In this document: positions 9,850-63,503 of the stretch, in pieces
Numbering within the stretch: the stretch's first letter is position 1
How the letters are laid out: every line of letters starts with the position of its first letter
Assembly: GCA_035512655.1 (NCBI GenBank)
Contig: DATKDM010000007.1
Location: forward strand, 5,215-69,214
Reading direction: 5' to 3'
Source of the DNA: Sphingomicrobium sp.
Lineage (GTDB): Bacteria; Pseudomonadota; Alphaproteobacteria; Sphingomonadales; Sphingomonadaceae
Length of the DNA: 64,000 nt
The notes under the pieces: generated by a model
Told to the model about the DNA's origin: nothing
Seen by the model: the letters and a program-made list of their open reading frames with translations, nothing else
Databases searched by the model: none
Program-made: the position numbers and the translations under genes

Positions 9850-11121
9850 TTAAGCCGAAATCAGCAATCCCGCCAGCGCGGCGCTCATGAGATTGGCCAG
9901 CGAACCGGCGATCAGCGCGCGGATGCCCAGCCGGGCGATCACCGGCCTTTGGTTGGGCGCAAGGCCGCCGGTCACCGCCATCTGGATGGCGATCGAGCTG
10001 AAATTGGCGAAGCCGCACAGGGCAAAGGTGACGATTGCGCGGCTGCGCTCGCTCATCACCGCCGGGCCCATCTGGCCAAGATCGATGAAAGCGACGAATT
10101 CGTTGAGGACGACCTTGGTGCCGAACAGGCCGCCGGCGGTCCCGGCCTCGTTCCACGGCACGCCGATCAGGAACATGATCGGCGCGAACAGATAGCCGAC
10201 CAGCCGCTGGAAGGTCAGGCCCTCGAGACCGAACCAGCCGCCGACGCCGGAAAGGAGCCCGTTGGCGAGCGCCACCAAGGCGACGAAAGCCAGCACCATC
10301 GCGCCGACCGCGACCGCGAGCTTGACGCCGGTCTGGGCGCCCTGCGCCGCGGCCATGATGATGTTGGCCGGCCGCTCGCCCTCCTCGAACGTCTCGGCGA
10401 GGTCGACCTGGTCCTCTTCCACGGCCCCGCCGGCGAGCGGAAGCTCGTCCGCGGCCGGGGGCTCGTCGGGCATGATGATCTTGGCCATCAATATGCCGCC
10501 CGGGGCGGACATGAAGGCGGCGGCGAGCAGATACGGCAAATATTCCTCGCCGAGCAGGCTCGCGTAGGCGGCGAGGATGGTGCCGGCAACTCCCGCCATT
10601 CCGACCGTCATCAGGGTGAACAGCCGCGACGGCGGCAGCGCGGCGAGGTACGGTCGCACGACCAAAGGCGATTCCGACTGGCCGACGAAGATGTTGGCCG
10701 CCGCGCCCAGCGATTCGACCCGGCTGATGCCGGTGATCCAGCCGATCGCCCCGCCGACCCAGCGGACGACCCGCTGCATGATGCCGAGATAATAAAGGAT
10801 CGAGACGATCGAGGCGAAGAAGATGATCACCGGCAGCGCGCCCAGCGCGAAGGTCAGCGCCAGCGGGTTGTTCTCCGACGGGCCGAACAGGAACTCGGTT
10901 CCCTCGTTGGCGTAGCCGAGCAGATTGGCGACCCCGGTCGACATGCCCCGGATCGCCGCTCGGCCCCACGGCGTGTAGATCACCAGCACCGCGATCCCGG
11001 CCTGCAACGCGAACGCGGCGCCGACGACCCGCAGCCGGATCGCCTTGCGGTTCGATGAAAGCGCGAATGCCAGCGCCAGGATGACGACGATGCCGGCAAT
11101 GCCGAGCAGGATCTGATTCAT
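9850..11121 (-). CDS. nupC: Concentrative nucleoside transporter (NupC/CNT family)
   Basis: Polytopic; ESLGAAANIFVGQSE, GMAGVAG, KVVLNEFVAF, FALCGFANFSSIAI. Confidence 0.93.
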   Translation of the reverse strand: MNQILLGIAGIVVILALAFALSSNRKAIRLRVVGAAFALQAGIAVLVIYTPWGRAAIRGMSTGVANLLGYANEGTEFLFGPSENNPLALTFALGALPVIIFFASIVSILYYLGIMQRVVRWVGGAIGWITGISRVESLGAAANIFVGQSESPLVVRPYLAALPPSRLFTLMTVGMAGVAGTILAAYASLLGEEYLPYLLAAAFMSAPGGILMAKIIMPDEPPAADELPLAGGAVEEDQVDLAETFEEGERPANIIMAAAQGAQTGVKLAVAVGAMVLAFVALVALANGLLSGVGGWFGLEGLTFQRLVGYLFAPIMFLIGVPWNEAGTAGGLFGTKVVLNEFVAFIDLGQMGPAVMSERSRAIVTFALCGFANFSSIAIQMAVTGGLAPNQRPVIARLGIRALIAGSLANLMSAALAGLLISA

Positions 11122-11143
11122 GGAAATTTCCGCTCCCGCCGGC

Positions 11144-11722
11144 CTACCAAACCATACCTTGTGCCGCTGTCCCCGCCGCCTCGTCCAGAAGTTTGATCGC
11201 CTCGTCCGGCGTTTGCGCGACGAGCAGCTGCGCGCGCCGGCGTTCGGACAGGAAACCGCTTGCGGTCGCGTGGTCGATGAATTCGACCAGCCCCTCCCAA
11301 AAGCCGGCGACGTTCAACAGGCAAAGCGGCTTCTTATGGTAGCCGAGCGCGTTCCACGACCACGCCTCGAAAAGTTCGTCGAGCGTGCCGATACCGCCCG
11401 GGAGCGCGAGGAAGCCGTCGGCGAGGTCGGTCATCAGCGCCTTGCGCTCGTGCATGTTCGCGACCTTGTGCAATTCGGTCACCCCAGTGTGCGCGACCTC
11501 GAGATCGACCAAAGCGTGCGGGATTACGCCATAGACCCGGCCGCCCAGCTCCAGAACGCTGTCGGCCATCAGCCCCATCAGGCCAAGGCGCCCGCCGCCG
11601 TAAACCAGGTCGATGCCGTTGCCGACCATCGCCTCGGCCATGGCCTGGGCGGCGTTGGAGAAGACCGGGTCGGACCCGATCGCCGACCCGCAATAGACCG
11701 CGAGGCGCCGCAGGTTGCTCAC
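11144..11722 (-). CDS. LOG family (TIGR00730) nucleotide phosphoribohydrolase
   Basis: VYCGS, LVYGGGRLGLMG, MHERKALM, PGGIGTLDELFE; GTG start overlaps the kinase stop. Confidence 0.92.
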   Translation of the reverse strand: MSNLRRLAVYCGSAIGSDPVFSNAAQAMAEAMVGNGIDLVYGGGRLGLMGLMADSVLELGGRVYGVIPHALVDLEVAHTGVTELHKVANMHERKALMTDLADGFLALPGGIGTLDELFEAWSWNALGYHKKPLCLLNVAGFWEGLVEFIDHATASGFLSERRRAQLLVAQTPDEAIKLLDEAAGTAAQGMVW

Positions 11723-12705
11723 AACCGCACCAGCTCCTTGAGGTCGGCTTCGGGGCGCGCGCCGAAATGAGAGATGACCTCCGCGGCGGCGAGCGCGCCG
11801 GCCTCCAGGCACCGCTCGAGCCCGTGGCCTCGGCAGCGGGCGGCGACAAAGCCCGCCGCGAACAGGTCGCCGGCGCCGGTCGTGTCGATCACGCGCTCGA
11901 CCGGCGCCGCACAAATCTCGACCCGCTCGCCGCTCTCGATCCCGATTGCCCCGGCGGGCCCGCGGGTCACGACCAAAGTCGCGATCTTCGCTGACAACTG
12001 CTCCAAGGCGCGCTCGAGGTCGCCGCTCCCGGTCAGGTGCTGAACCTCGTCCTCGTTGGCGAACAACAGGTCGACGGCGCCGGCGTCGATCAGTCCCTGG
12101 ACCCCCTCTCGGCGGCCGGGGATGCACAGGCTTTCCGACAAAGTGAAGGCGACGGCGCGGCCGGCCAAATGGGCGATCTCGGCGGCTCGCAGCATCGCCC
12201 GACGCGGCCGCTCGGGGCCCCACAGATAGCCTTCGAGATAGGTGATCGCGGCCGAGCGGATCAGCTCCTCGTCGAGGGCCTTGGGACCCAGCTCGTGGCT
12301 GGCGCCGGGACAGGTGTTCATAGTCCGCTGCGCATCTGGGGTGACGAGGATCAAACAACGGCCGGTCGGCGGTCCGCCCACCAGCGGCGGAGTGTCGAAC
12401 TGCACCCCGAGCGCGCGCATGTCGTGGGCGAAGATATCGCCGAGCTGGTCGTCGGCGACCAGGCCGATGAAGGCCGCGCGGCCGCCCAGGGCCGCGACCC
12501 CGGCCATGCTGTTGGCCGCCGAGCCGCCACTGGTCTCGCGGGCGCTGCCCATCGCCGCGTACAGCTCGTCGGCCTCGTCGGCGGTCAGCAGGCGCATCGA
12601 GCCCTTCTGCAGCCCCCGCTCCGCCAGGAATTCATCGTCGCACGTCGCAATCACGTCGACGATGGCGTCACCGATCGCAACGATGTCGAGCTTCGGGGAC
12701 GTCAC
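11719..12705 (-). CDS. Adenosine kinase / PfkB family carbohydrate kinase
   Basis: IGDAIVD, GGSAANS, DAQRTMNT, FANEDE, DTTGAGDLFAAGF; GTG start at 12705 inferred. Confidence 0.9.
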   Translation of the reverse strand: MTSPKLDIVAIGDAIVDVIATCDDEFLAERGLQKGSMRLLTADEADELYAAMGSARETSGGSAANSMAGVAALGGRAAFIGLVADDQLGDIFAHDMRALGVQFDTPPLVGGPPTGRCLILVTPDAQRTMNTCPGASHELGPKALDEELIRSAAITYLEGYLWGPERPRRAMLRAAEIAHLAGRAVAFTLSESLCIPGRREGVQGLIDAGAVDLLFANEDEVQHLTGSGDLERALEQLSAKIATLVVTRGPAGAIGIESGERVEICAAPVERVIDTTGAGDLFAAGFVAARCRGHGLERCLEAGALAAAEVISHFGARPEADLKELVRL

Positions 12706-54364: not shown

Positions 54365-55885
54365 ATGGATCGCAACGGTCGTCTCCACTGCCAGGTACGC
54401 CTGCTTGATGAAACCGGGTCGCCGGTTGGCTGCGGGTTCATCTGCGATGATCGGCAAATGATGACGTGCACTCATGTTGTCGCAAGCTGCGTCACTGGTC
54501 CGGTCGACAATGCCGTCGTGGAATGCCGCTTTCCGGGAACGCCAGACCATCGAGCCAGGCTTCGCGTGACCAAAAGCTTTCCGACGTCCGCTGGCGCAGG
54601 AGATCCGCAGGTTCGGTTGCTTCGCGACATCGCAGTGCTTGAGCTCGAGCCGGGGAGTAGCTTCCCTCCGGACTTTCAACCGGTGAGCAGCAGGCTGACG
54701 TCACTCGATCGGCATATGGAGTTCTTCGGAACGGGCATCATGAAGGGCTATCTGGACGGAATACAGATCGCCGGGCAAACCGGGGAACCTGTCGAGTCCA
54801 ACCGGGTGTTTGTGGCTGGGTTTCATCCCGATCAGTCGGTCCAGCCCGGCTGTTCCGGAGCGGCCATTTTTCATGGCCACGAGGGCTTGCTTGGATTGGT
54901 TGCAGAAGTCCAGCAGACCGCCATGGCGCTGATCATCCCGATCGAAATTTTGCGGAAAGTATTGTCGATCCGCGGCGCCAACCCGGCTTCGTCGACCCCG
55001 TCTGGGGGCGAAGCTATCGCCGGCAAGACGGCGGAACCGCTCAACAAGCGGATGCTTCGCGCCTTCAGTGATTTCGATCGCCACGACCAGTCCGCGGACT
55101 TTCGCGATGCCTTCGACCGTAAGTGGAATCAGAATCGCTCGGTGATGCTTTGCGCGATCGCTGGACTCGACGACGACGTGCCGAGCCATTGCCGGGACAA
55201 GTTCAGACATTACGACCTGAAGGATTTTCTGAGGCGCAATAACATCGCCGCGAGCAAGATCGACGCCTTGGAAATTTCGTGGCCGCTCCACGAGCGAAAG
55301 TTTGACGTCGAACGGGTCCTGAAACGGATGAAAGGCGTGCTGGCGGGGCATCTCCACGCTTCGGGCACCGAACCCGGGCAAATCCGGGAGGCGCTGAACA
55401 CCGACCTTCGGCAGCTGATCTTTTACAGCCAGCTCGATCAACGCACGTTCTATAGCCGTCCAAATCAACGGACCTTGGGGAAAAACCAACTCGATCTGCT
55501 ACAAAAATGGGCGGCGTACTTTAACGCAATTGATGATGAGCCGATCGATCGACCATTGATTCATTTTCTCATTATCAAACTGGATCCGGATGACTTCCAA
55601 GCCACGTCCCAGGAGCCGAACGCGCTGCTTACGGCTTTTTATCGCGACCTTATTGCACGCACCAATCGCAAGATGCCGCCAGACTCGGAAATCGAAAATA
55701 CCTCACTGCTCAACTATTTCGATATTGACTTTATCGATAATTGGATTGGGATGAATTCAGAGATCGTTGGACTGGACGAGCAATTGGCGGACGACGTTCG
55801 CGAAGCCGCGCGCGACACCTTTGCCGACGCCCATTACATTCGATTGAAGGACGTGGGGAATTGGATGAAGTCGCTGCCTGGTTGA
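54365..55885 (+). CDS. Trypsin-like serine peptidase fused to an inactive STAND (iSTAND)-like domain
   Basis: Triad TCTHVV / RDIAVL / PGCSGAA; C-terminal DFDRHDQSADFRDAF...CAIAGLDDD resembles iSTAND; adjacent to MoxR and vWA-like genes. Confidence 0.75.
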   Translation: MDRNGRLHCQVRLLDETGSPVGCGFICDDRQMMTCTHVVASCVTGPVDNAVVECRFPGTPDHRARLRVTKSFPTSAGAGDPQVRLLRDIAVLELEPGSSFPPDFQPVSSRLTSLDRHMEFFGTGIMKGYLDGIQIAGQTGEPVESNRVFVAGFHPDQSVQPGCSGAAIFHGHEGLLGLVAEVQQTAMALIIPIEILRKVLSIRGANPASSTPSGGEAIAGKTAEPLNKRMLRAFSDFDRHDQSADFRDAFDRKWNQNRSVMLCAIAGLDDDVPSHCRDKFRHYDLKDFLRRNNIAASKIDALEISWPLHERKFDVERVLKRMKGVLAGHLHASGTEPGQIREALNTDLRQLIFYSQLDQRTFYSRPNQRTLGKNQLDLLQKWAAYFNAIDDEPIDRPLIHFLIIKLDPDDFQATSQEPNALLTAFYRDLIARTNRKMPPDSEIENTSLLNYFDIDFIDNWIGMNSEIVGLDEQLADDVREAARDTFADAHYIRLKDVGNWMKSLPG

Positions 55886-55909
55886 TCGGCGACAAGTAAA
55901 GGGTTTGCC

Positions 55910-57010
55910 ATGGGGTTTGTAGCAGTCAGTCAAGACAGCCCGTTACGGCTGGTCACACCACTCGCTGAGGGACACAAGGCCGCCGGCTCCTACCGCCCCG
56001 CTCAGGGGCTTCGTGAAGCGTTCGACGTTGCGATGATGCTTGGCGTGCCCTTGCTCATCACCGGTGAGCCGGGCACCGGCAAAACGCGGGCTGCCTATTG
56101 GCTATGCCATGAGCTGGGCTTGCCCGCCCCGCAACCGCTTCGGTTCGACGTCAAATCCGGCTCAAGCGGGCGTGACCTCCTGTACAGCTTCGATGAAGTT
56201 GCCCGCTTCCGGGATGCCGCCGCTAATGAGTCTAAGCCTCTGATCGATTATCTGCAGCTCAACGCGCTCGGCGAAGCGATCGTACGAGCAGCGGGGGGTC
56301 AAGGCATCCTCACCGATATTGCAGGCCGGGAACTTAGTGGTGATCGCTTCGCAAGCGCGGAAAAGCTCATCACGCGCGCTTTTGGCGAGGACCTGGTTGC
56401 GGCCGGCGCGGCGCGTGCAGCATGGCTGGTGCCGGAGGATGCTGCGTTCGTCGAAGCGCTCCCTCAGCACTGCGCGGTGTTGATCGACGAACTCGACAAG
56501 GCGCCCCGCGACACCCCCAACGACCTGCTCGCGGAGATCGAAAACATGGGCTTTGCAATCCCGGAGATGGGAATTGCAATTCGATCCGATCCGAGCTTCC
56601 GGCCGATCGTAATTCTCACAAGCAATTCGGAAAAATCGCTGCCTGAGCCATTTCTGCGCCGCTGCGTTTATTTCGACATCCCGTTCCCGGTGGAAGCTGA
56701 GCTGGCCGAAATCGTTCAATCGGCGATCGCCAGTCTGACCAAAGGCAGCCCCCTGGTTACGAGCGCAATTGCGTTATTCGAGGCGATACGTGCCGACCGC
56801 GAGGTTGGCCGAAAGCCCGGCACGGCCGAATTGCTGGCTTGGATCGACATAATTGTTTCGCGGGAAAAGATCAGCGCGGACGAGAATCTCGCGAACCGGC
56901 TGAAGGATCAGCCCGACCTGCTCAATAATAGCTTGAGCGCGCTGCTCAAAACCCGCGTGGATATCGAGGCCGGCAAGCGCGTGCTCAGGGCGGCAGCGGC
57001 AAAAGGCTAG
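55910..57010 (+). CDS. MoxR-family AAA+ ATPase
   Basis: PLLITGEPGTGKT, DLLYSFDEVARFRD, VLIDELDKAPRDTPNDLL.E, TSNSEKSLPEPFLRRCVYFDIPFP, RKPGTAELLAW. Confidence 0.93.
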   Translation: MGFVAVSQDSPLRLVTPLAEGHKAAGSYRPAQGLREAFDVAMMLGVPLLITGEPGTGKTRAAYWLCHELGLPAPQPLRFDVKSGSSGRDLLYSFDEVARFRDAAANESKPLIDYLQLNALGEAIVRAAGGQGILTDIAGRELSGDRFASAEKLITRAFGEDLVAAGAARAAWLVPEDAAFVEALPQHCAVLIDELDKAPRDTPNDLLAEIENMGFAIPEMGIAIRSDPSFRPIVILTSNSEKSLPEPFLRRCVYFDIPFPVEAELAEIVQSAIASLTKGSPLVTSAIALFEAIRADREVGRKPGTAELLAWIDIIVSREKISADENLANRLKDQPDLLNNSLSALLKTRVDIEAGKRVLRAAAAKG

Positions 57011-57015
57011 CAACC

Positions 57016-59646
57016 GTGGCATCCGCGGCCATCGACGAAATCGATTATTTCGATCTTTCGGCAAGCGCTGCGCGACGACTGAAAGTCAGCCCTGCGAGCC
57101 TGATCCGCTTCGAAGCGATTCGCCTTCAGCTCGCGGCGCACGGCATTCGCAAGAGCGACCAGCGCATTCCGCTCTGGATTGCTCCGATGTTCTGCACGAC
57201 GCCGGAAGCGCGCCGGCTTTTCTTCGAAAGCTTCCCCAAAGAGCCGCCGAAGGTCGGACAATTGCCAAAGGACCGCAAGCGCAGCGCCGCCGCGGATCGC
57301 CGGGCCAAGCGCAGGCTCCGCACTCGACCTCGCGTCGGATGGCGAAAAACGCTGCTGGGGGCGATTCTGATTCTGGCTATTGCCGCTTTTGTCGCGCTTG
57401 TCGTCATACCTCAGTTCCGGGCCGAACCAGAGTTCGCCAACCAATCGACCGACCTGACCAACACAACTTCCCCGCCACCCGGTTCGAATTCACCGCCGCC
57501 AACAGAAGAGCCGCCGCGAGGGCCCACTTTACGAACCTGGCTGGCGCTGGGCCTGCCGGCATTGCTGGCCAGCGCTTACGTCATTTGGTTGCGCCGCCGC
57601 CGGCGCATCATCAGGCGCGACCACGCCCCCGCACCCGAACGATCGGTCAGGCTCGCCTTCGCGACCGGCCTCGAAAATTTCCTGGCGGAGCGCTCGCTTC
57701 GCAAGGCGATGGGCAACCTTCGCCGCCATCGCCCGGTCATCTCGTCCAAGCTCAATGTCCCCGCCGCGATCCGCGCCACCATCCGGTCGGCCGGCTTCCC
57801 GCAAATGCGCTACGGATTCCGTCCGCGCAGCCCCGAATATCTCGTGCTCAACGAAAGAGAGTCACCCACCGATCATCTTGCTGTGATCGGCCATGTAATG
57901 GCGAGGCGCATGACCGAGGAGCATGTTGCCCATAGCCGGTACGAATATTTCGGCGACCCGCGCCGGCTCCAGCGGATCGAACGTGGCTCGCCGGCTGGAG
58001 TTTTCCCGCTTTCGACCGAGCTCGCGCGGCATGACGGCGCTCGAGTGATGCTCTTGCAGGAAAGCCATGATTGCTTTGCCGAAGACAACAGCCCCGAGTG
58101 GCTGGCGCGCATCGCGGAAACCGAACGGCCGGTGCTGCTCAACCCCCGGTCGCCGGATGCCTGGGGATCGGCGGAAACCCGCCTGACTTCGCTTGGATTT
58201 GGGATCTTTTCGCCGAACGGCCGCGGAATCGCGGATTATGGCGATTATCTCAACACGACCGGAAACGTGCGGCGCCGGCTCGCCCGAAGCAATGCGACGC
58301 GCTTCGATCTTCCGGAGAGCTTGGCTCGCGACCGGAATTTGCTGCTCGACAACGAACCGCCGCTCGACTCGCTGATCGGCGAGCTGGTCACGGATCTCGA
58401 CCTTTGGCTCGACGAAGGCGGCGGCTACTGGCTGCGCGGCCTGGCGCTATTCCCCTATATCGATCCGGGGTTCACGGTCTTCCTCGGCAAGGCGCTGGTC
58501 GATGGCGACGGTCGGCCGCTGTTGGAGGAAGCCCGCTTCTTCGATCTTGCCCGTTTGCCCTGGCTTCGCGCCGGCCGGATGCCCGATTGGTTGCGCCGTG
58601 CATTGGTGCGAGGCCTCACGCCGGCGCAGCTCGAGGCGGCGACCGACGCCATCCAGGCCTTTCTCATGCCCGCGGACCAGCCCGAAGGCGAGGCCAAGAT
58701 CGACTTTTCGCGCGGCAAGGATCCGCGGCTGCGCAAGCGGCTTCTCGACTGGCTCAAGCTGACGCCGGAAAGCCTGCTGAGCGATCAACTGCTTATCGAG
58801 GCGCTGGGGGGCCGAGCGGCCGAGGAGCTCGGCCTCGAAGCGCCCAAAACGCTCCTGCGCCATTCGCGAAGCCTGTGGGCGAGCAACGAGGCACGTGCCG
58901 TGGCCATCGCCGCCGCGGCGACTATCGTCATCGGCGCATGGCAATGGCCCACGCTTTTCCCTGAACCCACGACGGCTCAAGCTACGACCGAAACGCGTAC
59001 TCCCACTCAAGGGGAAGTCGCTCCCTTCGAGCCTTTGTTTCCTGAAGAGGAGAAGGAACCGATTTTGGACGCCGCTGGCCGTGCGTTGGATGAAGCGGGC
59101 AACACGAGTGACGCCGGCAACGCGAATGCTGACGCCAATGCGTCAAATCTAGCGGGCAGCGCGAACGACGCCAAGGATAACACGAACGCAGCTAAAGATG
59201 CACTTGAAGCGGCCGCCGACGCCGTTGAACGGGCGGCCGAAGCGGCGACGACGTCTGAAACGGAGATCCTAGCTGGCCCGTTTGTATTATTCTTGGACGC
59301 CGACACGACGGTCATCACGCCCGATACCGAAGCAGCGCTCCGGAGAATAGCTGATGCATATAAGAATGAAGTTGGGTCACGGGGGAATATCGAGCCTGGC
59401 CTTGTTCAGATCATAGTCCGAATTTACTCCAATCCATCAGATGGTGCCTTGGGGAGACGTCTCGGGCGGTCGATTGAGGATTGGCTTACGGGACGTGGGA
59501 TACCGCCAAGCGAAATTGTAGTTCAGTCCGTTGGCGGAACAGTTCCGACTAAGGCCAGCATGGTAACGGCGAGCGCAGTGCAAAGGACCCTTCGGGTAGA
59601 AATCTCACTCGTCGCAAACTACGGAAAAGCTCCAACCGCAAACTGA
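57016..59646 (+). CDS. Membrane-spanning vWA-like component of a MoxR ternary system, with C-terminal OmpA-like domain
   Basis: WIAPMFCTTPE..RLFF; LNVPAAIRATIRSAGFP...PEYLVLNERES..DH...YFGDP; three hydrophobic helices; C-terminal LF.D..T...ALRRIA...DWL.GRGIP.SEI...G...P...RVEI. Confidence 0.75.
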   Translation: MASAAIDEIDYFDLSASAARRLKVSPASLIRFEAIRLQLAAHGIRKSDQRIPLWIAPMFCTTPEARRLFFESFPKEPPKVGQLPKDRKRSAAADRRAKRRLRTRPRVGWRKTLLGAILILAIAAFVALVVIPQFRAEPEFANQSTDLTNTTSPPPGSNSPPPTEEPPRGPTLRTWLALGLPALLASAYVIWLRRRRRIIRRDHAPAPERSVRLAFATGLENFLAERSLRKAMGNLRRHRPVISSKLNVPAAIRATIRSAGFPQMRYGFRPRSPEYLVLNERESPTDHLAVIGHVMARRMTEEHVAHSRYEYFGDPRRLQRIERGSPAGVFPLSTELARHDGARVMLLQESHDCFAEDNSPEWLARIAETERPVLLNPRSPDAWGSAETRLTSLGFGIFSPNGRGIADYGDYLNTTGNVRRRLARSNATRFDLPESLARDRNLLLDNEPPLDSLIGELVTDLDLWLDEGGGYWLRGLALFPYIDPGFTVFLGKALVDGDGRPLLEEARFFDLARLPWLRAGRMPDWLRRALVRGLTPAQLEAATDAIQAFLMPADQPEGEAKIDFSRGKDPRLRKRLLDWLKLTPESLLSDQLLIEALGGRAAEELGLEAPKTLLRHSRSLWASNEARAVAIAAAATIVIGAWQWPTLFPEPTTAQATTETRTPTQGEVAPFEPLFPEEEKEPILDAAGRALDEAGNTSDAGNANADANASNLAGSANDAKDNTNAAKDALEAAADAVERAAEAATTSETEILAGPFVLFLDADTTVITPDTEAALRRIADAYKNEVGSRGNIEPGLVQIIVRIYSNPSDGALGRRLGRSIEDWLTGRGIPPSEIVVQSVGGTVPTKASMVTASAVQRTLRVEISLVANYGKAPTAN

Positions 59647-59654
59647 CCCAGCCC

Positions 59655-60542
59655 CTAGACCCCGCACGCCTTTCCAATTGCGGTGGCGATGCGCTTGTCG
59701 GCGAGATAGCCCCCAATGGAGTGCGGATCGTCGAGGTCGTTTTCGACATCGAGCAGGTTTTCGATCCCGTCGGCAAAGGTCGCTTTGTCGAGCCCCTTTC
59801 CCAGGGTGATGAAGTCGTCGGGATCGCCGGCGTTGATCCAGCGCTCGACGCCCGGCGGCCTGGAAAACTCCGGACCGAGCGCCGCCTGCACGGCCATTAG
59901 CGGCAGCGGCGAGCCGACCGTGACGTAAAGCGGAACCGTCACCGGGTTTCCCTCCGAGGCCATCTGCCGAAGCAGCTTGAACGTCACCACGGTGCCGAGT
60001 GAGTGCGCGACGATGATGCTCGGCCCCTGCTCGAGCGCCGGCCCGACGATTGCATCGACAGCCCTCGCCGCTCCCGGTTTCTTCAAATAGGAATGCGCCT
60101 GCTTGAGGATGCGCATCACCAGTTTGCCGTGAAGCGGAGACACACGCTCGAGCAGTCGAACGATGGCGTTGAACCGGCGGTTCATGATCAACCCCTGCTC
60201 GTGGGCGAGGTCGCCGGACTGACGCGCGATCGCGCGTTGCTCGGCCGCGATCGCGGCCGGTCCGATGCCCGCCTCGCTCGCCGTTTCCATCAGCGCGCTG
60301 GCAAGAAACGCCGCTTCATCGGCATCGGGTTTCCCGTCAGGACCCTGCGACACGGCGACGACATCGCTGGTGTCGGACAGGCGCTTGAGCTCATCGCCGT
60401 AGAAAGGCACGTCGATCTCGAGCTGGTCGAGCGCGCCGGCTTTCCCCAGGCCACGGCAAATGTGGCAAACCCAGTCCTTGCGAAGCAATTCCTCGCTCTT
60501 GCCTTGCTGATTGATGCCGTGAACGAGAACCAGCCGGGTCAT
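59655..60542 (-). CDS. Alpha/beta hydrolase (lipase/esterase-like)
   Basis: LVLVHGINQ oxyanion motif, AHSLG nucleophile, TVGSPL, DPDDFIT, HSIGGYL. Confidence 0.85.
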   Translation of the reverse strand: MTRLVLVHGINQQGKSEELLRKDWVCHICRGLGKAGALDQLEIDVPFYGDELKRLSDTSDVVAVSQGPDGKPDADEAAFLASALMETASEAGIGPAAIAAEQRAIARQSGDLAHEQGLIMNRRFNAIVRLLERVSPLHGKLVMRILKQAHSYLKKPGAARAVDAIVGPALEQGPSIIVAHSLGTVVTFKLLRQMASEGNPVTVPLYVTVGSPLPLMAVQAALGPEFSRPPGVERWINAGDPDDFITLGKGLDKATFADGIENLLDVENDLDDPHSIGGYLADKRIATAIGKACGV

Positions 60543-62545
60543 CGATCGTCTCCGAAGATCAGATCGCCGAGGAGCGTCCCGCCCTCGGGCGTGAGAGTTG
60601 TAAACGGCGCGGAAGTGAGATGCTGGCGGATGGTGGCCAGACCTTCCGGCATAAGCTGCGGCTCGCCGTCATCGACCAGCTGCCAGCCCTGCCTCAGCCA
60701 TGGGAAGGTGCCCGCCACGACGCCCTCGACGGCGGGAGTGGCATCATACGCCCATTGGCTGTTCGCTTCGCTTTCGGTCCGTGGTGCACGCTTGGCCACG
60801 GCTGGAATACTCGCCACCACCACGCCGTTGCCACGCTCGGCCTTGATGCGGGCAAGCATCGCCACATCGAAGGGTATCGGCTGGTTTGCATTCGCAAAGA
60901 AATAGGCAATCTGGCGGATGCTTTCGACGTCCCCCTGCGAGTCATAGAGGTAGGCGGCCAGTGCGCCCAACATCGGATCCTGATGCTTCCCGTCTCGAAG
61001 CTCTAGCGCATAATCATAGGCCTCACCGCCTCGAAACATGCCGGCGCGGAGGTTAGCGACCGCCTCTTCCGCTTTCGCCTCGGCGCCCGCCATTCCGATT
61101 GGCCGATAAATGACGCTGACCGCTCCCGTCTCATCGATAGTGAATGTCTGAATGAACTTCGGAATCGCAGTCGTACCGAGCCAGCGACCGTCATCCAGCT
61201 CGACCAGCATGGGCAGCGGTCTTTGGAGTTCGAACTTGTGCGGGTCTCGAATCCGCCACCACTCCGGACTATCATCGTCACGCTCGACGATCTCCGGCTG
61301 ACCGATCAAGCCGCGAACGGCCTTCGCACCGGTTAGGCTGAACCCCGATCCGGTTTCAAAATGGGTCGGCCAATTTTCCGCACGGTAGGAATCGAGGAAG
61401 CCGCGCGCCTTCTCGTCACAGATGGATGCCTCGCGCTCGATCCGGGTGCGCTCTTCCTCGGGCGTTTCGGGTGGCGGCGACTCGGGGGGCGGAGGAGTCG
61501 GCGCCCGGGGAGCGATGCTTGCCGGCATACGCGGCCGTGCCCTGGTTGACGATTCCACACCGGGAACCCAATTGCTTACGCTCCCCGCAAACCCCAGATC
61601 GTTCAAAATAATGGCACCGGGAGTCGGCGCCGTCGCTGGCGCCGCATCCGGTGGCGCGGCTTTGGCTGCCTGCCCCACGGTCGACCAGCCGCGCTTGCCG
61701 CCGGCAGGCGCGCCGCCGTCGGGACCCATGGCTCCTGGCGGAGCAGGCGCGGGCCAGGCTTTTGGCGCCGGAGCCCCGGCGAGCGGCTCGGTGACGTAAA
61801 CGTCATCCGGATCGAGGAAGCCCGAAATGATGTCGGGGCGCAGCTCGACCTTGTAGAATGCGGCCTTGACCGGAACCTCGCTACGAAGATATTTGGCGAG
61901 GCTGCCGCTGGTGATGCGGCGCTGGTTACCAACCATGTGATCCGAAAATGCCGAAGGCTTATGGCCCCACAGCGCTTCCTCGATGACGCCGGTGAAAATG
62001 CAGCGGTCGTCATCCAGAGTGGCGCCCGGTATCATGTATGCAGCGCGGAACTTTGACGATGCCTTGAGCATGTCGATCAAAGGCAAATTTGGATCGTACG
62101 GCCCGCGTCCAAGGACGTTGTCTGACGTCAGGTCGGCCGTATCGGCATCCGCCGGCAGGGATCGGCAAGCATCGGAAATGATTGCGATTTGCTCGATTCC
62201 GAAGCGCTCGAGCTTGCGCTTCAGGCCACCGACGGCGACAGCCTCCTGCTCTTCGTGCCATTGCGACAGCAGCCACAAGTCTTCGGCTGCGTCGCGCGCC
62301 AGGCCGTGGCCGGCGAAATAGAGGATCAGCCTGTCGGTCTTGGTTCCTTGAGGCAGGAGTTTTTGCATTGCCTTTTTGACATCCTCAACGCCGACCGGCT
62401 TCTTGGAGTCGATCAGCAATTTGGTCTCGTACCCGGCCTTTTTGGCCCAGGCGTCCATCGCCTTGGCGCCGTTCACCGCACCCGGCAGATAATCGAGCGG
62501 CGGAGCGTCCGAAATACCGATTGCCAGACATGCCTTGCGTCCCAT
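60539..62545 (-). CDS. Caspase-family (peptidase C14, metacaspase-like) protein with Pro/Ala linker and unknown C-terminal domain
   Basis: LAIGIS...LPGAVNGA..M..W, LILYFAGHG (His), IISDACRS (Cys). Confidence 0.88.
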   Translation of the reverse strand: MGRKACLAIGISDAPPLDYLPGAVNGAKAMDAWAKKAGYETKLLIDSKKPVGVEDVKKAMQKLLPQGTKTDRLILYFAGHGLARDAAEDLWLLSQWHEEQEAVAVGGLKRKLERFGIEQIAIISDACRSLPADADTADLTSDNVLGRGPYDPNLPLIDMLKASSKFRAAYMIPGATLDDDRCIFTGVIEEALWGHKPSAFSDHMVGNQRRITSGSLAKYLRSEVPVKAAFYKVELRPDIISGFLDPDDVYVTEPLAGAPAPKAWPAPAPPGAMGPDGGAPAGGKRGWSTVGQAAKAAPPDAAPATAPTPGAIILNDLGFAGSVSNWVPGVESSTRARPRMPASIAPRAPTPPPPESPPPETPEEERTRIEREASICDEKARGFLDSYRAENWPTHFETGSGFSLTGAKAVRGLIGQPEIVERDDDSPEWWRIRDPHKFELQRPLPMLVELDDGRWLGTTAIPKFIQTFTIDETGAVSVIYRPIGMAGAEAKAEEAVANLRAGMFRGGEAYDYALELRDGKHQDPMLGALAAYLYDSQGDVESIRQIAYFFANANQPIPFDVAMLARIKAERGNGVVVASIPAVAKRAPRTESEANSQWAYDATPAVEGVVAGTFPWLRQGWQLVDDGEPQLMPEGLATIRQHLTSAPFTTLTPEGGTLLGDLIFGDDR

Positions 62546-62729
62546 GACGTCTCACTCCCCTATACCGAGACTTTGGTTTTAGGGCTTGGCTCCAAGCGAA
62601 AGTTTCAATCGCAACACGCGATGATCGGCCCGGCTATGCTGCGACTTTCCGGCGCTCTTGACAACCTGCCGCCGGAAGGGCTTCCTTTGACTCTGCTCGG
62701 CTCTTTCGCATCCACCTCGGGAGGTGCTC

Positions 62730-63503
62730 ATGAGCGTTAATCTTCAACAGGCGCGCAGCTACATCGCAGATGTGGATTTGCCGCCGCGGCCCTCGTCGGG
62801 TGCCATTCCGCAAGACGCAACGCCCAGCGCGCCGGTCTTCGACACCGTCAAGGAGCAGGCCGCCGTGGTCGGTTCCGAAGTCGTTTCGTTCATGGCTGGA
62901 GTCGATGCTGAAACGCGCGCGGCGATCTCCAATTGCGCGCTCCTCGCGCAGCTGGCGGCGAGCAAAAAGGTCGCTGACAAGGAGGATATCTACGCTTGGT
63001 ACGAAGCCTATTTCGACGTGCTGAAGGCGCTCGGCTGGGTGGTCCAGGACGGCGGTTTTGCTGAGTTCTCGGAGAGCAGCCAAGGCTTCGAAGTCCATGA
63101 GAAGATCATGGATGTCGCCGCAGTGCTGCTTGGTCCGGGAGCCGCGGCGTTGGCGGTCATCAAGACCACGCTGGACGCATTGAAGGCGATGAAATCCGAC
63201 AATGGCTGGCTGACCATTTTCCAACGTGAGAGCCAACATGCGAAAGCGGCGCGATTCCAGATCTCGCTGGTTCAACAGAGTAATACTGGCGACGTGATGG
63301 TCAGCATGATGGCGTTTGGAATCGAGGCCAGCAAGACGGTGACCCAGGTGCTGTTCTTCAAAATCAAAAAGAACAAGGCCAAGCTTCGGCACAATTCGGC
63401 CAAGCTTAGCATCGACTCAGCCTCGCTAGTCGATTTGGCGCCGGATATTCGCGACAGGGTCCGCGTTTACCAGCGCGCCTACGTCGCCAGCCTGGAGATC
63501 TGA
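62730..63503 (+). CDS. Evf-like / Cyt-fold putative membrane-active protein
   Basis: VGSEVVSF...SNCALLAQLAASKK...WYEAYFDVLKALGW...FQISL...AF......QVLFF matches my recollection of Evf-family proteins; GGGAGG RBS. Confidence 0.55.
   Translation: MSVNLQQARSYIADVDLPPRPSSGAIPQDATPSAPVFDTVKEQAAVVGSEVVSFMAGVDAETRAAISNCALLAQLAASKKVADKEDIYAWYEAYFDVLKALGWVVQDGGFAEFSESSQGFEVHEKIMDVAAVLLGPGAAALAVIKTTLDALKAMKSDNGWLTIFQRESQHAKAARFQISLVQQSNTGDVMVSMMAFGIEASKTVTQVLFFKIKKNKAKLRHNSAKLSIDSASLVDLAPDIRDRVRVYQRAYVASLEI

Follow-up and report, generated by a model that had tools for sequence, protein, structure and literature searches.

Organization and composition of the locus

The stretch analyzed here (the window) comprises 64,000 nucleotides of a Sphingomicrobium sp. 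genome (assembly GCA_035512655.1, contig DATKDM010000007.1) and carries, at positions 54365-59646, a three-gene locus of 5.3 kb. The first gene codes for a trypsin-like protease fused to an inactive STAND (iSTAND) module, the second for a MoxR/midasin-clade AAA+ ATPase, and the third for a membrane protein whose vWA core is divergent and whose end is OmpA-like. We propose, with a probability of roughly 0.6, that the three genes form one operon encoding a membrane-anchored sub-type of the iSTAND MoxR-vWA "ternary" conflict system, acting by the mechanism described below.

54365-55885, + strand: gene 1, trypsin-like-iSTAND protein, 506 codons
55910..57010, + strand: gene 2, MoxR/midasin-clade AAA+ ATPase, catalytic motifs intact, 366 codons (Pfam, alignment, profile)
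57016-59646, + strand: gene 3, membrane vWA-OmpA-like protein (P0003), 876 codons
54299..54326, + strand: sigma-70-like promoter match at 9 of 12 positions (weak evidence, the region having 3 such sites against 1.3 expected)

The three open reading frames (ORFs) are intact, lie on the same strand and are separated by 24 and 5 nt, in agreement with an earlier sequence-only reading that had described a trypsin / MoxR / vWA-OmpA locus here. Each ORF aligns with its closest homologues over the full length, so none is truncated, and the catalytic residues of the locus are all intact. The GC content of genes 1, 2, and 3 is 56.7, 60.9, and 62.7%, respectively, compared with 64.8% for the window; the lower GC of the first two genes had been remarked on from the letters. 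The GC content at third codon positions (GC3) is about 10 points lower in the three genes than in the neighbouring ones, and the 300-bp gap 5' of gene 1 has 55% GC. The recorded copies of the gene 1 and gene 3 proteins are shorter than the ORFs (389 and 533 residues). Homologues align from residue 1, and the recorded gene calls probably start too late.

Gene 1: a predicted trypsin-like protease on an iSTAND scaffold

54365..54964, + strand: N-terminal trypsin-like (S1) protease head, residues 1-200, triad H37/D88/S164 (Pfam Trypsin_2, homologue alignment)
55040..55885, + strand: C-terminal iSTAND module, residues ~226-506 (Pfam, hhalign, HMM)

Gene 1 is predicted to encode a cytoplasmic trypsin-like protease carried on an NTPase-dead iSTAND scaffold. 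The Pfam scores of the single sequence are marginal for both parts: Trypsin_2 (PF13365) matches residues 22-176 with an E-value of 9.8e-6 and 26.8 bits, 0.8 bit short of the cut-off of 27.6, and iSTAND (PF19995) matches residues 237-404 of the whole protein with an E-value of 2.2e-4 and 22.1 bits against a cut-off of 24. Both assignments were therefore checked through relatives. Homologues of gene 1 exceed the Trypsin_2 cut-off, and the precomputed Pfam labels of trypsin-headed homologues include the same family. When ten trypsin-headed homologues were aligned, H37 (TCTH37V) was invariant and D88 (D88IAVL) and S164 (GCS164GA) were kept in all of them. The His, Asp, and Ser residues stand in the expected order, with GxSGx surrounding the Ser, which bears out the intact triad reported before. 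A search among PDB sequences returned no sequence-level relatives of the trypsin head.

The fusion of the protease to an iSTAND-like domain, also claimed from the sequence, is well supported. A six-frame scan of the 2.46-Mb assembly gave this stretch 25.1 bits, above the cut-off, and found it to be the sole iSTAND domain in the assembly. The first-gene proteins of related operons, which are mostly Pfam-verified iSTAND carriers, served as the hhalign reference, and the trypsin-headed subfamily aligned with them at 99.0% (E 2.2e-18, 254 columns). A profile built from seven Pfam-verified iSTAND modules alone also detects the C-terminal half of gene 1 (E 6e-11). The scaffold is NTPase-dead as judged from its motifs: the strand-loop at the P-loop position reads LCAIAGLDDDVPSHC, without the Walker A GK[ST] and with no Lys-Ser/Thr, and the same position in the TIR-iSTAND protein of a related locus (L003) reads FLCFVHGDQDECH, likewise without Lys-Ser/Thr. 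The proposed descent of iSTAND from STAND NTPases comes from a published profile-profile analysis (Kaur et al., eLife 2020, PMC7159879).

Gene 2: an AAA+ ATPase of the MoxR clade

Gene 2 exceeds the Pfam cut-offs for both AAA and AAA_5 (29.4 bits against a cut-off of 22 for the latter), and AAA_3, the MoxR family proper, is not among its Pfam matches. In an alignment of 18 operon-linked ATPases, the Walker A (G52-T59), Walker B (D193/E194), and sensor-1 (T237-N239) motifs and the Arg finger (R250/R251) are invariant. The profile of the gene 2 family finds midasin at 8e-18, the next AAA+ families following from 3e-5, and midasin has been assigned to the MoxR clade (Kaur et al., 2020, PMC7159879). 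The protein is predicted from its motifs to be a catalytically intact MoxR-clade AAA+ motor; the first reading had named it a MoxR ATPase. Between Walker A and Walker B it carries an insert of about 45 residues (residues ~137-185, positions 56318-56464) that otherwise occurs only in its two nearest relatives (L001, L002); the 15 other operon-linked ATPases do not have it.

Gene 3: a divergent vWA core and a conserved helical domain

57691..58251, + strand: divergent CoxE-type vWA domain, residues 226-412 (hhalign, AlphaFold2 [AF2], Foldseek)
58252..58893, + strand: conserved all-helical domain, residues 413-626 (family alignment, AF2)

Gene 3 has no match among the Pfam, NCBIfam, and PADLOC models. 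Nine relatives were found by a word-indexed search. A full HMMER scan, with a profile of seven sequences, yielded 1174 representative clusters at E<=1e-30, and a core of about 440 residues is common to the 150 best of these. No Pfam vWA family is listed for any of 42 gene 3 relatives, and the only C-terminal vWA domain in the gene 3 family is that of P0011. A scan of the host genome with PF05762 (VWA_CoxE) gave no match, and profiles of gene 3 family sequences run against the PDB gave OmpA-like matches only and no vWA.

The vWA assignment comes from profile-profile comparison and from a predicted fold. The reference was a set of eight CoxE-type proteins of about 392 residues from related genomes, found with PF05762 above or at its cut-off. 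A core alignment of 145 gene 3 sequences matched this reference over residues 226-412 at 96.1% (hhalign, E 3.2e-9, 187 columns), and a separate 23-sequence alignment did so at 92.2%; an alignment dominated by close relatives reached just 42%. With only 7 sequences, the full-length AF2 model (pLDDT 52) had an unusable core, and the core fragment was refolded with 23 sequences from related loci, giving a pLDDT of 79.9 and a pTM of 0.75. The DSSP string, and not a superposition, gave the order of elements in this model (strand, helix, hairpin, helix, strand, helix, strand, helix, strand, helix), which we take to be consistent with vWA topology. The top Foldseek match in the PDB is NorD of NorQD (E 2.3e-3, probability 1.00, target TM-score 0.37), followed by phosphoribosyltransferases at E>=0.036. 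NorQ and NorD are themselves a MoxR-vWA pair. The match is marginal, in part owing to the 200-residue helical domain contained in the query.

The putative ligand site of this domain has been modified. In the mapping to CoxE-type proteins, E280 corresponds to the Asp of DVGGSMD, D286 to the last Asp of the same motif, and E349 to the Asp of VGDAS. Among the 145 sequences of the core alignment, position 280 is Asp in 87 and Glu in 55 (D or E in 142/145), position 349 is Asp in 76 and Glu in 62 (D or E in 138/145), and D286 is invariant; E280 and E349 each come after a hydrophobic strand. The LNERES stretch, which had been read as a degenerate metal ion-dependent adhesion site (MIDAS), does align to the MIDAS loop. 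The present comparison refines that reading: both acidic MIDAS positions are Glu in the window, and the serines of DxSxS are gone, replaced by R281, E282, and P284. Gene 3 has neither a canonical MIDAS, with Asp ending strands 1 and 4 together with DxSxS, nor a Pfam vWA match, so it is filed here as a divergent rather than a canonical vWA protein. On the profile and model evidence, residues 226-412 are predicted to be a divergent CoxE-type vWA domain in which the acidic positions survive as Glu and the serines are lost. One by-product for annotation is a family of more than 1000 representative clusters with a vWA domain that Pfam misses.

The helical domain that follows (residues 413-626) matched no known family in Pfam, PDB sequence profiles, or Foldseek. 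It holds the near-invariant motif LARLPW.R.G.MPDWLR (residues 511-527, positions 58546-58596), which is the best-conserved stretch in the whole gene 3 family; W516, P523, and R527 are invariant in 120 sequences.

Gene 3: membrane topology and the periplasmic tail

57016..57240, + strand: N-terminal four-helix domain, residues 1-75, cytoplasmic (AF2)
57334..57591, + strand: transmembrane segment TM1 (residues 107-138), Pro-rich periplasmic loop, and TM2 (174-192) (hydrophobicity, flanking charge)
58900..58956, + strand: TM3, residues 629-647, moderately hydrophobic (Kyte-Doolittle)
58957..59262, + strand: low-complexity periplasmic linker including an Ala/Asn/Asp-rich stretch (composition; 7-23% identity to homologues)
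59263..59646, + strand: degenerate OmpA-like domain, residues 750-876, periplasmic (family profile, AF2)

The N-terminal domain consists of four helices in the AF2 model (residues 11-21, 26-41, 51-59, and 63-70; block pLDDT 75-87) and is 65-72% identical to its counterparts in the two nearest homologues; hhalign found no alignment of this region to the N-terminus of CoxE-type proteins. The three transmembrane helices counted in the sequence-only reading were recovered as three hydrophobic segments. Residues 107-138 and 174-192 are strongly hydrophobic, and TM3, the moderate one, is part of a long helix in the AF2 models. Basic clusters precede TM1, follow TM2 (RRRRRIIRRDH), and precede TM3, and acidic or Pro-rich sequence makes up the TM1-TM2 loop and the region that follows TM3. 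By the positive-inside rule, this charge distribution places the four-helix, vWA, and helical domains in the cytoplasm and the tail in the periplasm. The loop, linker, and OmpA-like domain are therefore likely periplasmic.

The Ala/Asn/Asp-rich linker noted before was confirmed by composition, residues 689-749 being 34% Ala, 13% Asn, and 11% Asp. The label "degenerate OmpA-like" for the C-terminus is also accurate. The family profile matches Pal/OmpA at 5.8e-9, and the homologues P0006-P0008 exceed the Pfam OmpA (PF00691) cut-off, whereas the window's own domain has no Pfam match and an E-value of 0.025 against E. coli OmpA. AF2 gives it a beta-alpha-beta-alpha-beta-beta order, with block pLDDT mostly 67-87 and a low-confidence loop at 840-857. 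Aligned to OmpA with HMMER, the domain has IV at the TD position and Leu in place of the second Arg of ERRA; in the family alignment, SN stands for TD. The Asp of TD and the Arg of ERRA correspond to D241 and R256 of E. coli OmpA, the residues that bind the diaminopimelate of peptidoglycan. P0007 retains both the Asp and the Arg, and P0006 and P0008 just the Asp. Since both are missing from gene 3, canonical peptidoglycan binding by this tail is doubtful, and the peptidoglycan-binding sensor of the earlier reading is not supported for this copy. The OmpA-like end is probably a wall-proximal anchor or a diverged ligand-binding surface and not a canonical peptidoglycan binder. Comparison with the two nearest homologues gave 14-32% identity for the parts of gene 3 that are exposed to the periplasm (loop, linker, and tail) and 65-83% for the cytoplasmic domains; as a further by-product, the periplasmic parts evolve several times faster than the cytoplasmic core.

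Related loci and distribution

Related loci (numbered L001 onward) were found with the seven-sequence gene 3 alignment. An AAA gene lies immediately 5' of the core gene in all of those that hold upstream sequence (22/22). The gene 5' of the AAA gene has 440-540 codons and an N-terminal Trypsin, CHAT, TIR/SEFIR, or DUF4062 domain, and Pfam iSTAND is above its cut-off in 6 of the 10 first-gene proteins scanned, as well as in that of L003. The tails of the core proteins vary in domain type: OmpA, CarboxypepD_reg, PASTA, pentapeptide, WD40, Lcl_C, and IcmF_C occur among 42 representatives, and other relatives have vWA with FGE-sulfatase or PKD with TPR and FGE-sulfatase. In the two loci that also share the neighbouring genes of the window (L047 and L048), identity to the window is 81-84% for the AAA protein, 57-70% for the trypsin-iSTAND protein, and 52-58% for gene 3.

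The loci on genome contigs are spread over taxa that include Allosphingosinicella, Ectothiorhodospiraceae, Chromatiaceae, Methylococcales, Desulfobacteraceae, Acidobacteriota, KSB1, Rhizobium, and Cyanobium/Prochlorococcaceae. The core of gene 3 was absent from 24 other species in the genus and from 16 genomes belonging to the order. In distant loci the flanking genes are unrelated, which argues that the trio travels as a unit. The accessory distribution, the low GC and GC3, and the mobility of the trio suggest, indirectly, the behaviour of a conflict system. Seven of the related operons (L011, L014-L016, L021-L023) come from metagenome-assembled genomes of Cyanobium/Prochlorococcaceae, which are unicellular picocyanobacteria. 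Weak, partial PADLOC/NCBIfam matches in the search (RT-Protease_XI, TRIP13, IetA, MadB) were not accepted, being far below the cut-offs where a cut-off exists.

Proposed mechanism

Two published models bear on how such a locus might signal. Kaur et al. (2020, PMC7159879) proposed that the third component (iSTAND or VMAP) coordinates sensing and that the tails fused to vWA are effectors. Dore et al. (2023, bioRxiv 10.1101/2023.09.22.558884) took hypermutation of lectin-fold tails by diversity-generating retroelements (DGRs) as an argument for a sensing tail on the vWA protein, with the peptidase-bearing partner as output. For the membrane-anchored sub-type, our data lean to the tail-as-sensor model. 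The grounds are that the heads on iSTAND are enzymes, that the tails are binding or structural domains with turnover of type, and that periplasmic identity is 14-32% against 65-83% for the cytoplasmic domains. Relatives of gene 3 also carry FGE-sulfatase/lectin-fold tails, a fold that DGRs hypermutate in MoxR-linked loci (Dore et al., 2023).

In the mechanism that we propose, the vWA domain of gene 3 at rest would grip a peptide of a partner protein through its modified acidic site (E280, E349, D286), and this grip would keep the protease inactive and tethered at the membrane. The part of gene 3 exposed to the periplasm would sense a change, and the signal would pass through TM3 to the helical domain. 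The AAA+ ring would then spend ATP on remodelling the vWA-iSTAND complex, a step that may act as a threshold, and the trypsin head, freed or clustered with other copies, would cleave its targets. The invaded cell would stop growing or die. The sequence of the locus does not reveal a trigger. Puncture by a phage or a contractile injection system (CIS) had been suggested as one and is not supported here; the extracellular CIS (eCIS) genes upstream have no counterpart beside the five closest relatives.

Several points weigh against this mechanism. Every step of it is one that we infer, and our literature search found no experimental work on iSTAND ternary systems. The model of Kaur et al. (2020, PMC7159879) puts sensing on the third component and makes the tails effectors. 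The fast periplasmic divergence could reflect relaxed constraint and not an arms race, and the loss of the OmpA binding residues fits this. No Pfam vWA family was reported for gene 3 at E<=1, and the vWA call depends on profile-profile comparison together with the marginal fold match to NorD. A 22-module iSTAND profile found no STAND or AAA+ match among PDB sequences (best E 0.97). Finally, TM3 is weaker than the other segments (Kyte-Doolittle 1.46), while still being the third most hydrophobic stretch of gene 3.

The wiring of Kaur et al. offers the most probable alternative, and we give it a limited but real chance. Here a cytoplasmic iSTAND would coordinate the sensing of an intracellular invader, MoxR would set the threshold, and trypsin would cleave the vWA protein, whose OmpA-like tail would be only a wall anchor or a released effector. 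This is the published model for such systems (PMC7159879), a decayed OmpA-like domain without its binding residues suits a passive anchor, and gene 1 also evolves fast, as the identities to L047 and L048 given above show (57-70% vs 81-84% for the AAA protein). However, the domains found at the head of iSTAND (trypsin, CHAT, TIR, DUF4062) are enzymes typical of effectors, the turnover of domain types is located in the extracytoplasmic tail, and OmpA, PASTA, lectin-like, and WD40 tails have no obvious killing activity.

Neighbouring genes and wider readings

59655..60542, - strand: convergent 295-aa protein, putative alpha/beta-hydrolase, no Pfam match; syntenic in L047/L048, 84-86% identity
60539..62545, - strand: caspase-like (Peptidase_C14) protein, 668 aa; convergent to gene 3 in all five closest loci; 58-69% identity to L047/L048
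62724..63503, + strand: divergent 259-aa protein, putative Cyt-like; syntenic in L047/L048, 76-83% identity

The genes downstream of the trio raise a second possibility, which is that the system has six genes. In this scheme, the trypsin head would process the caspase-like protein, which would switch on the hydrolase and a Cyt-like membrane-damaging protein, a two-step protease cascade that could serve either sensor model. All five closest loci (the window, L001, L005, L047, and L048) have a caspase gene facing gene 3 in convergent orientation; in L001 and L005 it comes without the other two neighbours. The hydrolase-like and Cyt-like genes are syntenic in L047 and L048 even though gene 3 is only 52-58% identical there; the block of hydrolase-like, caspase, and Cyt-like genes spans 59655-63503 in the window, 6653-10535 in L047, and 5584-9439 in L048. 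The coding regions of gene 3 and the hydrolase-like gene overlap by 4 nt in L047 and L048, and CHAT/caspase genes adjoin L002 and L003. Kaur et al. (2020, PMC7159879) mention caspase and alpha/beta-hydrolase partners and protease cascades in MoxR-vWA systems. On the other side, the five loci are a single clade, and the synteny may be that of an inherited island with two independent systems. Distant loci have unrelated neighbours, and a search for an adaptor domain common to the six syntenic proteins found none. We therefore hold a six-gene system to be rather unlikely.

A minus-strand ORF leaving the end of the window (63518-64000) has a counterpart in L047, where a gene of 567 residues with 82% identity lies at the corresponding position (10551-12254); this indicates that the shared island reaches past the six genes.

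Combining the six-gene scheme with the tail-as-sensor model yields a more speculative idea, to which we attach a low probability. The fast-evolving periplasmic surface of gene 3 would detect an envelope attack, MoxR would license trypsin, trypsin would activate the caspase, and the caspase would unleash a Cyt-fold membrane breaker and a lipase-like hydrolase. If true, such a trans-envelope circuit would be a two-protease cascade started outside the cytoplasm, analogous to the initiator and executioner proteases of animals.

It is improbable that the trio is a housekeeping MoxR-vWA chaperone pair like RavA-ViaA, NorQ-NorD, or CoxD-CoxE, maturing or inserting an envelope protein with trypsin as quality control. 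The CoxE-type vWA domain, the fold match to NorD, and the membrane anchor would all suit such a pair, but the genes have low GC and are absent from 40 related genomes, the head is swapped for TIR, CHAT, or DUF4062, no conserved client gene lies nearby, and an iSTAND partner is specific to conflict systems (Kaur et al., 2020, PMC7159879).

A role as an accessory of the upstream eCIS locus, for example in the control of particle release or in protection from re-injection, is close to refuted: the operon does begin 300 bp past the last gene of the eCIS operon on the same strand, but it has its own GC dip and promoter-like site, and tblastn with the proteins of the eCIS genes at 45874-54064 (AAA, eCIS_core toxin, SUKH, and triple GT2) found no counterpart in the flanks of L001, L002, L005, L047, and L048. 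The eCIS link was rejected on this result, and the adjacency in the host genome looks incidental.

Comparison with known systems

The architecture found here has already been described. Kaur et al. (2020, PMC7159879) defined an iSTAND ternary class ("vWA-MoxR subsystem 2") with a core of MoxR, vWA, and an iSTAND protein, and the window locus is, from its domain content, a further member of this predicted class. This agrees with the sequence-only reading, which had named a trypsin-iSTAND / MoxR / vWA ternary conflict system and had called such systems described but largely untested; the 2020 account is a prediction. In that account, the vWA protein has an N-terminal four-helix domain, with N-terminal transmembrane segments in ~28%. 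Its C-terminus is variable, FGS being the commonest domain, with OmpA, PEGA, PASTA, and Sel1 tails behind a transmembrane segment, and the heads on iSTAND are TIR, DRHyd, caspase-like, or trypsin-like. The locus in the window shares with this class the three components and their order, the trypsin-like or TIR heads, the helical N-terminus with transmembrane segments, the OmpA/PEGA/PASTA type of tail after a transmembrane segment, and the accessory, patchy distribution. It differs in that both MIDAS acids are Glu, that no Pfam vWA is detected, and that the OmpA-like tail lacks the peptidoglycan-binding residues. The 2020 census counted 103 organisms and stressed multicellular bacteria, whereas the gene 3 profile finds 1174 representative clusters (E<=1e-30). 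The picocyanobacterial loci and the 2.46-Mb host sit poorly with the reported multicellular enrichment of iSTAND systems.

The VMAP ternary class (vWA-MoxR subsystem 1) has the same MoxR-vWA pair, a third protein with a trypsin, caspase, or TIR head, and a proposed ATP-gated threshold. It differs in that the third component is VMAP, in being mostly cytoplasmic, and in a MoxR that is extended at both its N- and its C-terminus (Kaur et al., 2020, PMC7159879).

Like the window, the DGR target loci of Thiohalocapsa PB-PSB1 have, in this order, a trypsin gene, a MoxR gene, and a multi-TM target with a C-terminal domain proposed as the sensor. The tails there are hypermutated lectin folds, whereas the window has a decayed OmpA-like tail with no DGR nearby. 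Loci of Thiodictyon and Chromatiaceae fall within the gene 3 family, and the N-terminal extensions of some MoxR-linked DGR targets, which Dore et al. (2023) termed "unidentified", may correspond to the divergent vWA core of gene 3.

The pairs CoxD-CoxE, NorQ-NorD, RavA-ViaA, and CbbQ-CbbO likewise place an AAA+ protein of the same clade beside a vWA partner; NorD is the best fold match, and the motifs that CoxE-type proteins have before and within the vWA domain also occur in gene 3. These pairs differ in having a fixed client enzyme and no iSTAND, protease head, or swappable modules. The compact 5.3-kb copy described here, with intact catalytic residues and clear point-mutant controls, is a reasonable candidate for a first reconstitution, which bears on the direction in which the ternary class signals, with either the tail or iSTAND as the sensor, and on the role of its AAA+ threshold.

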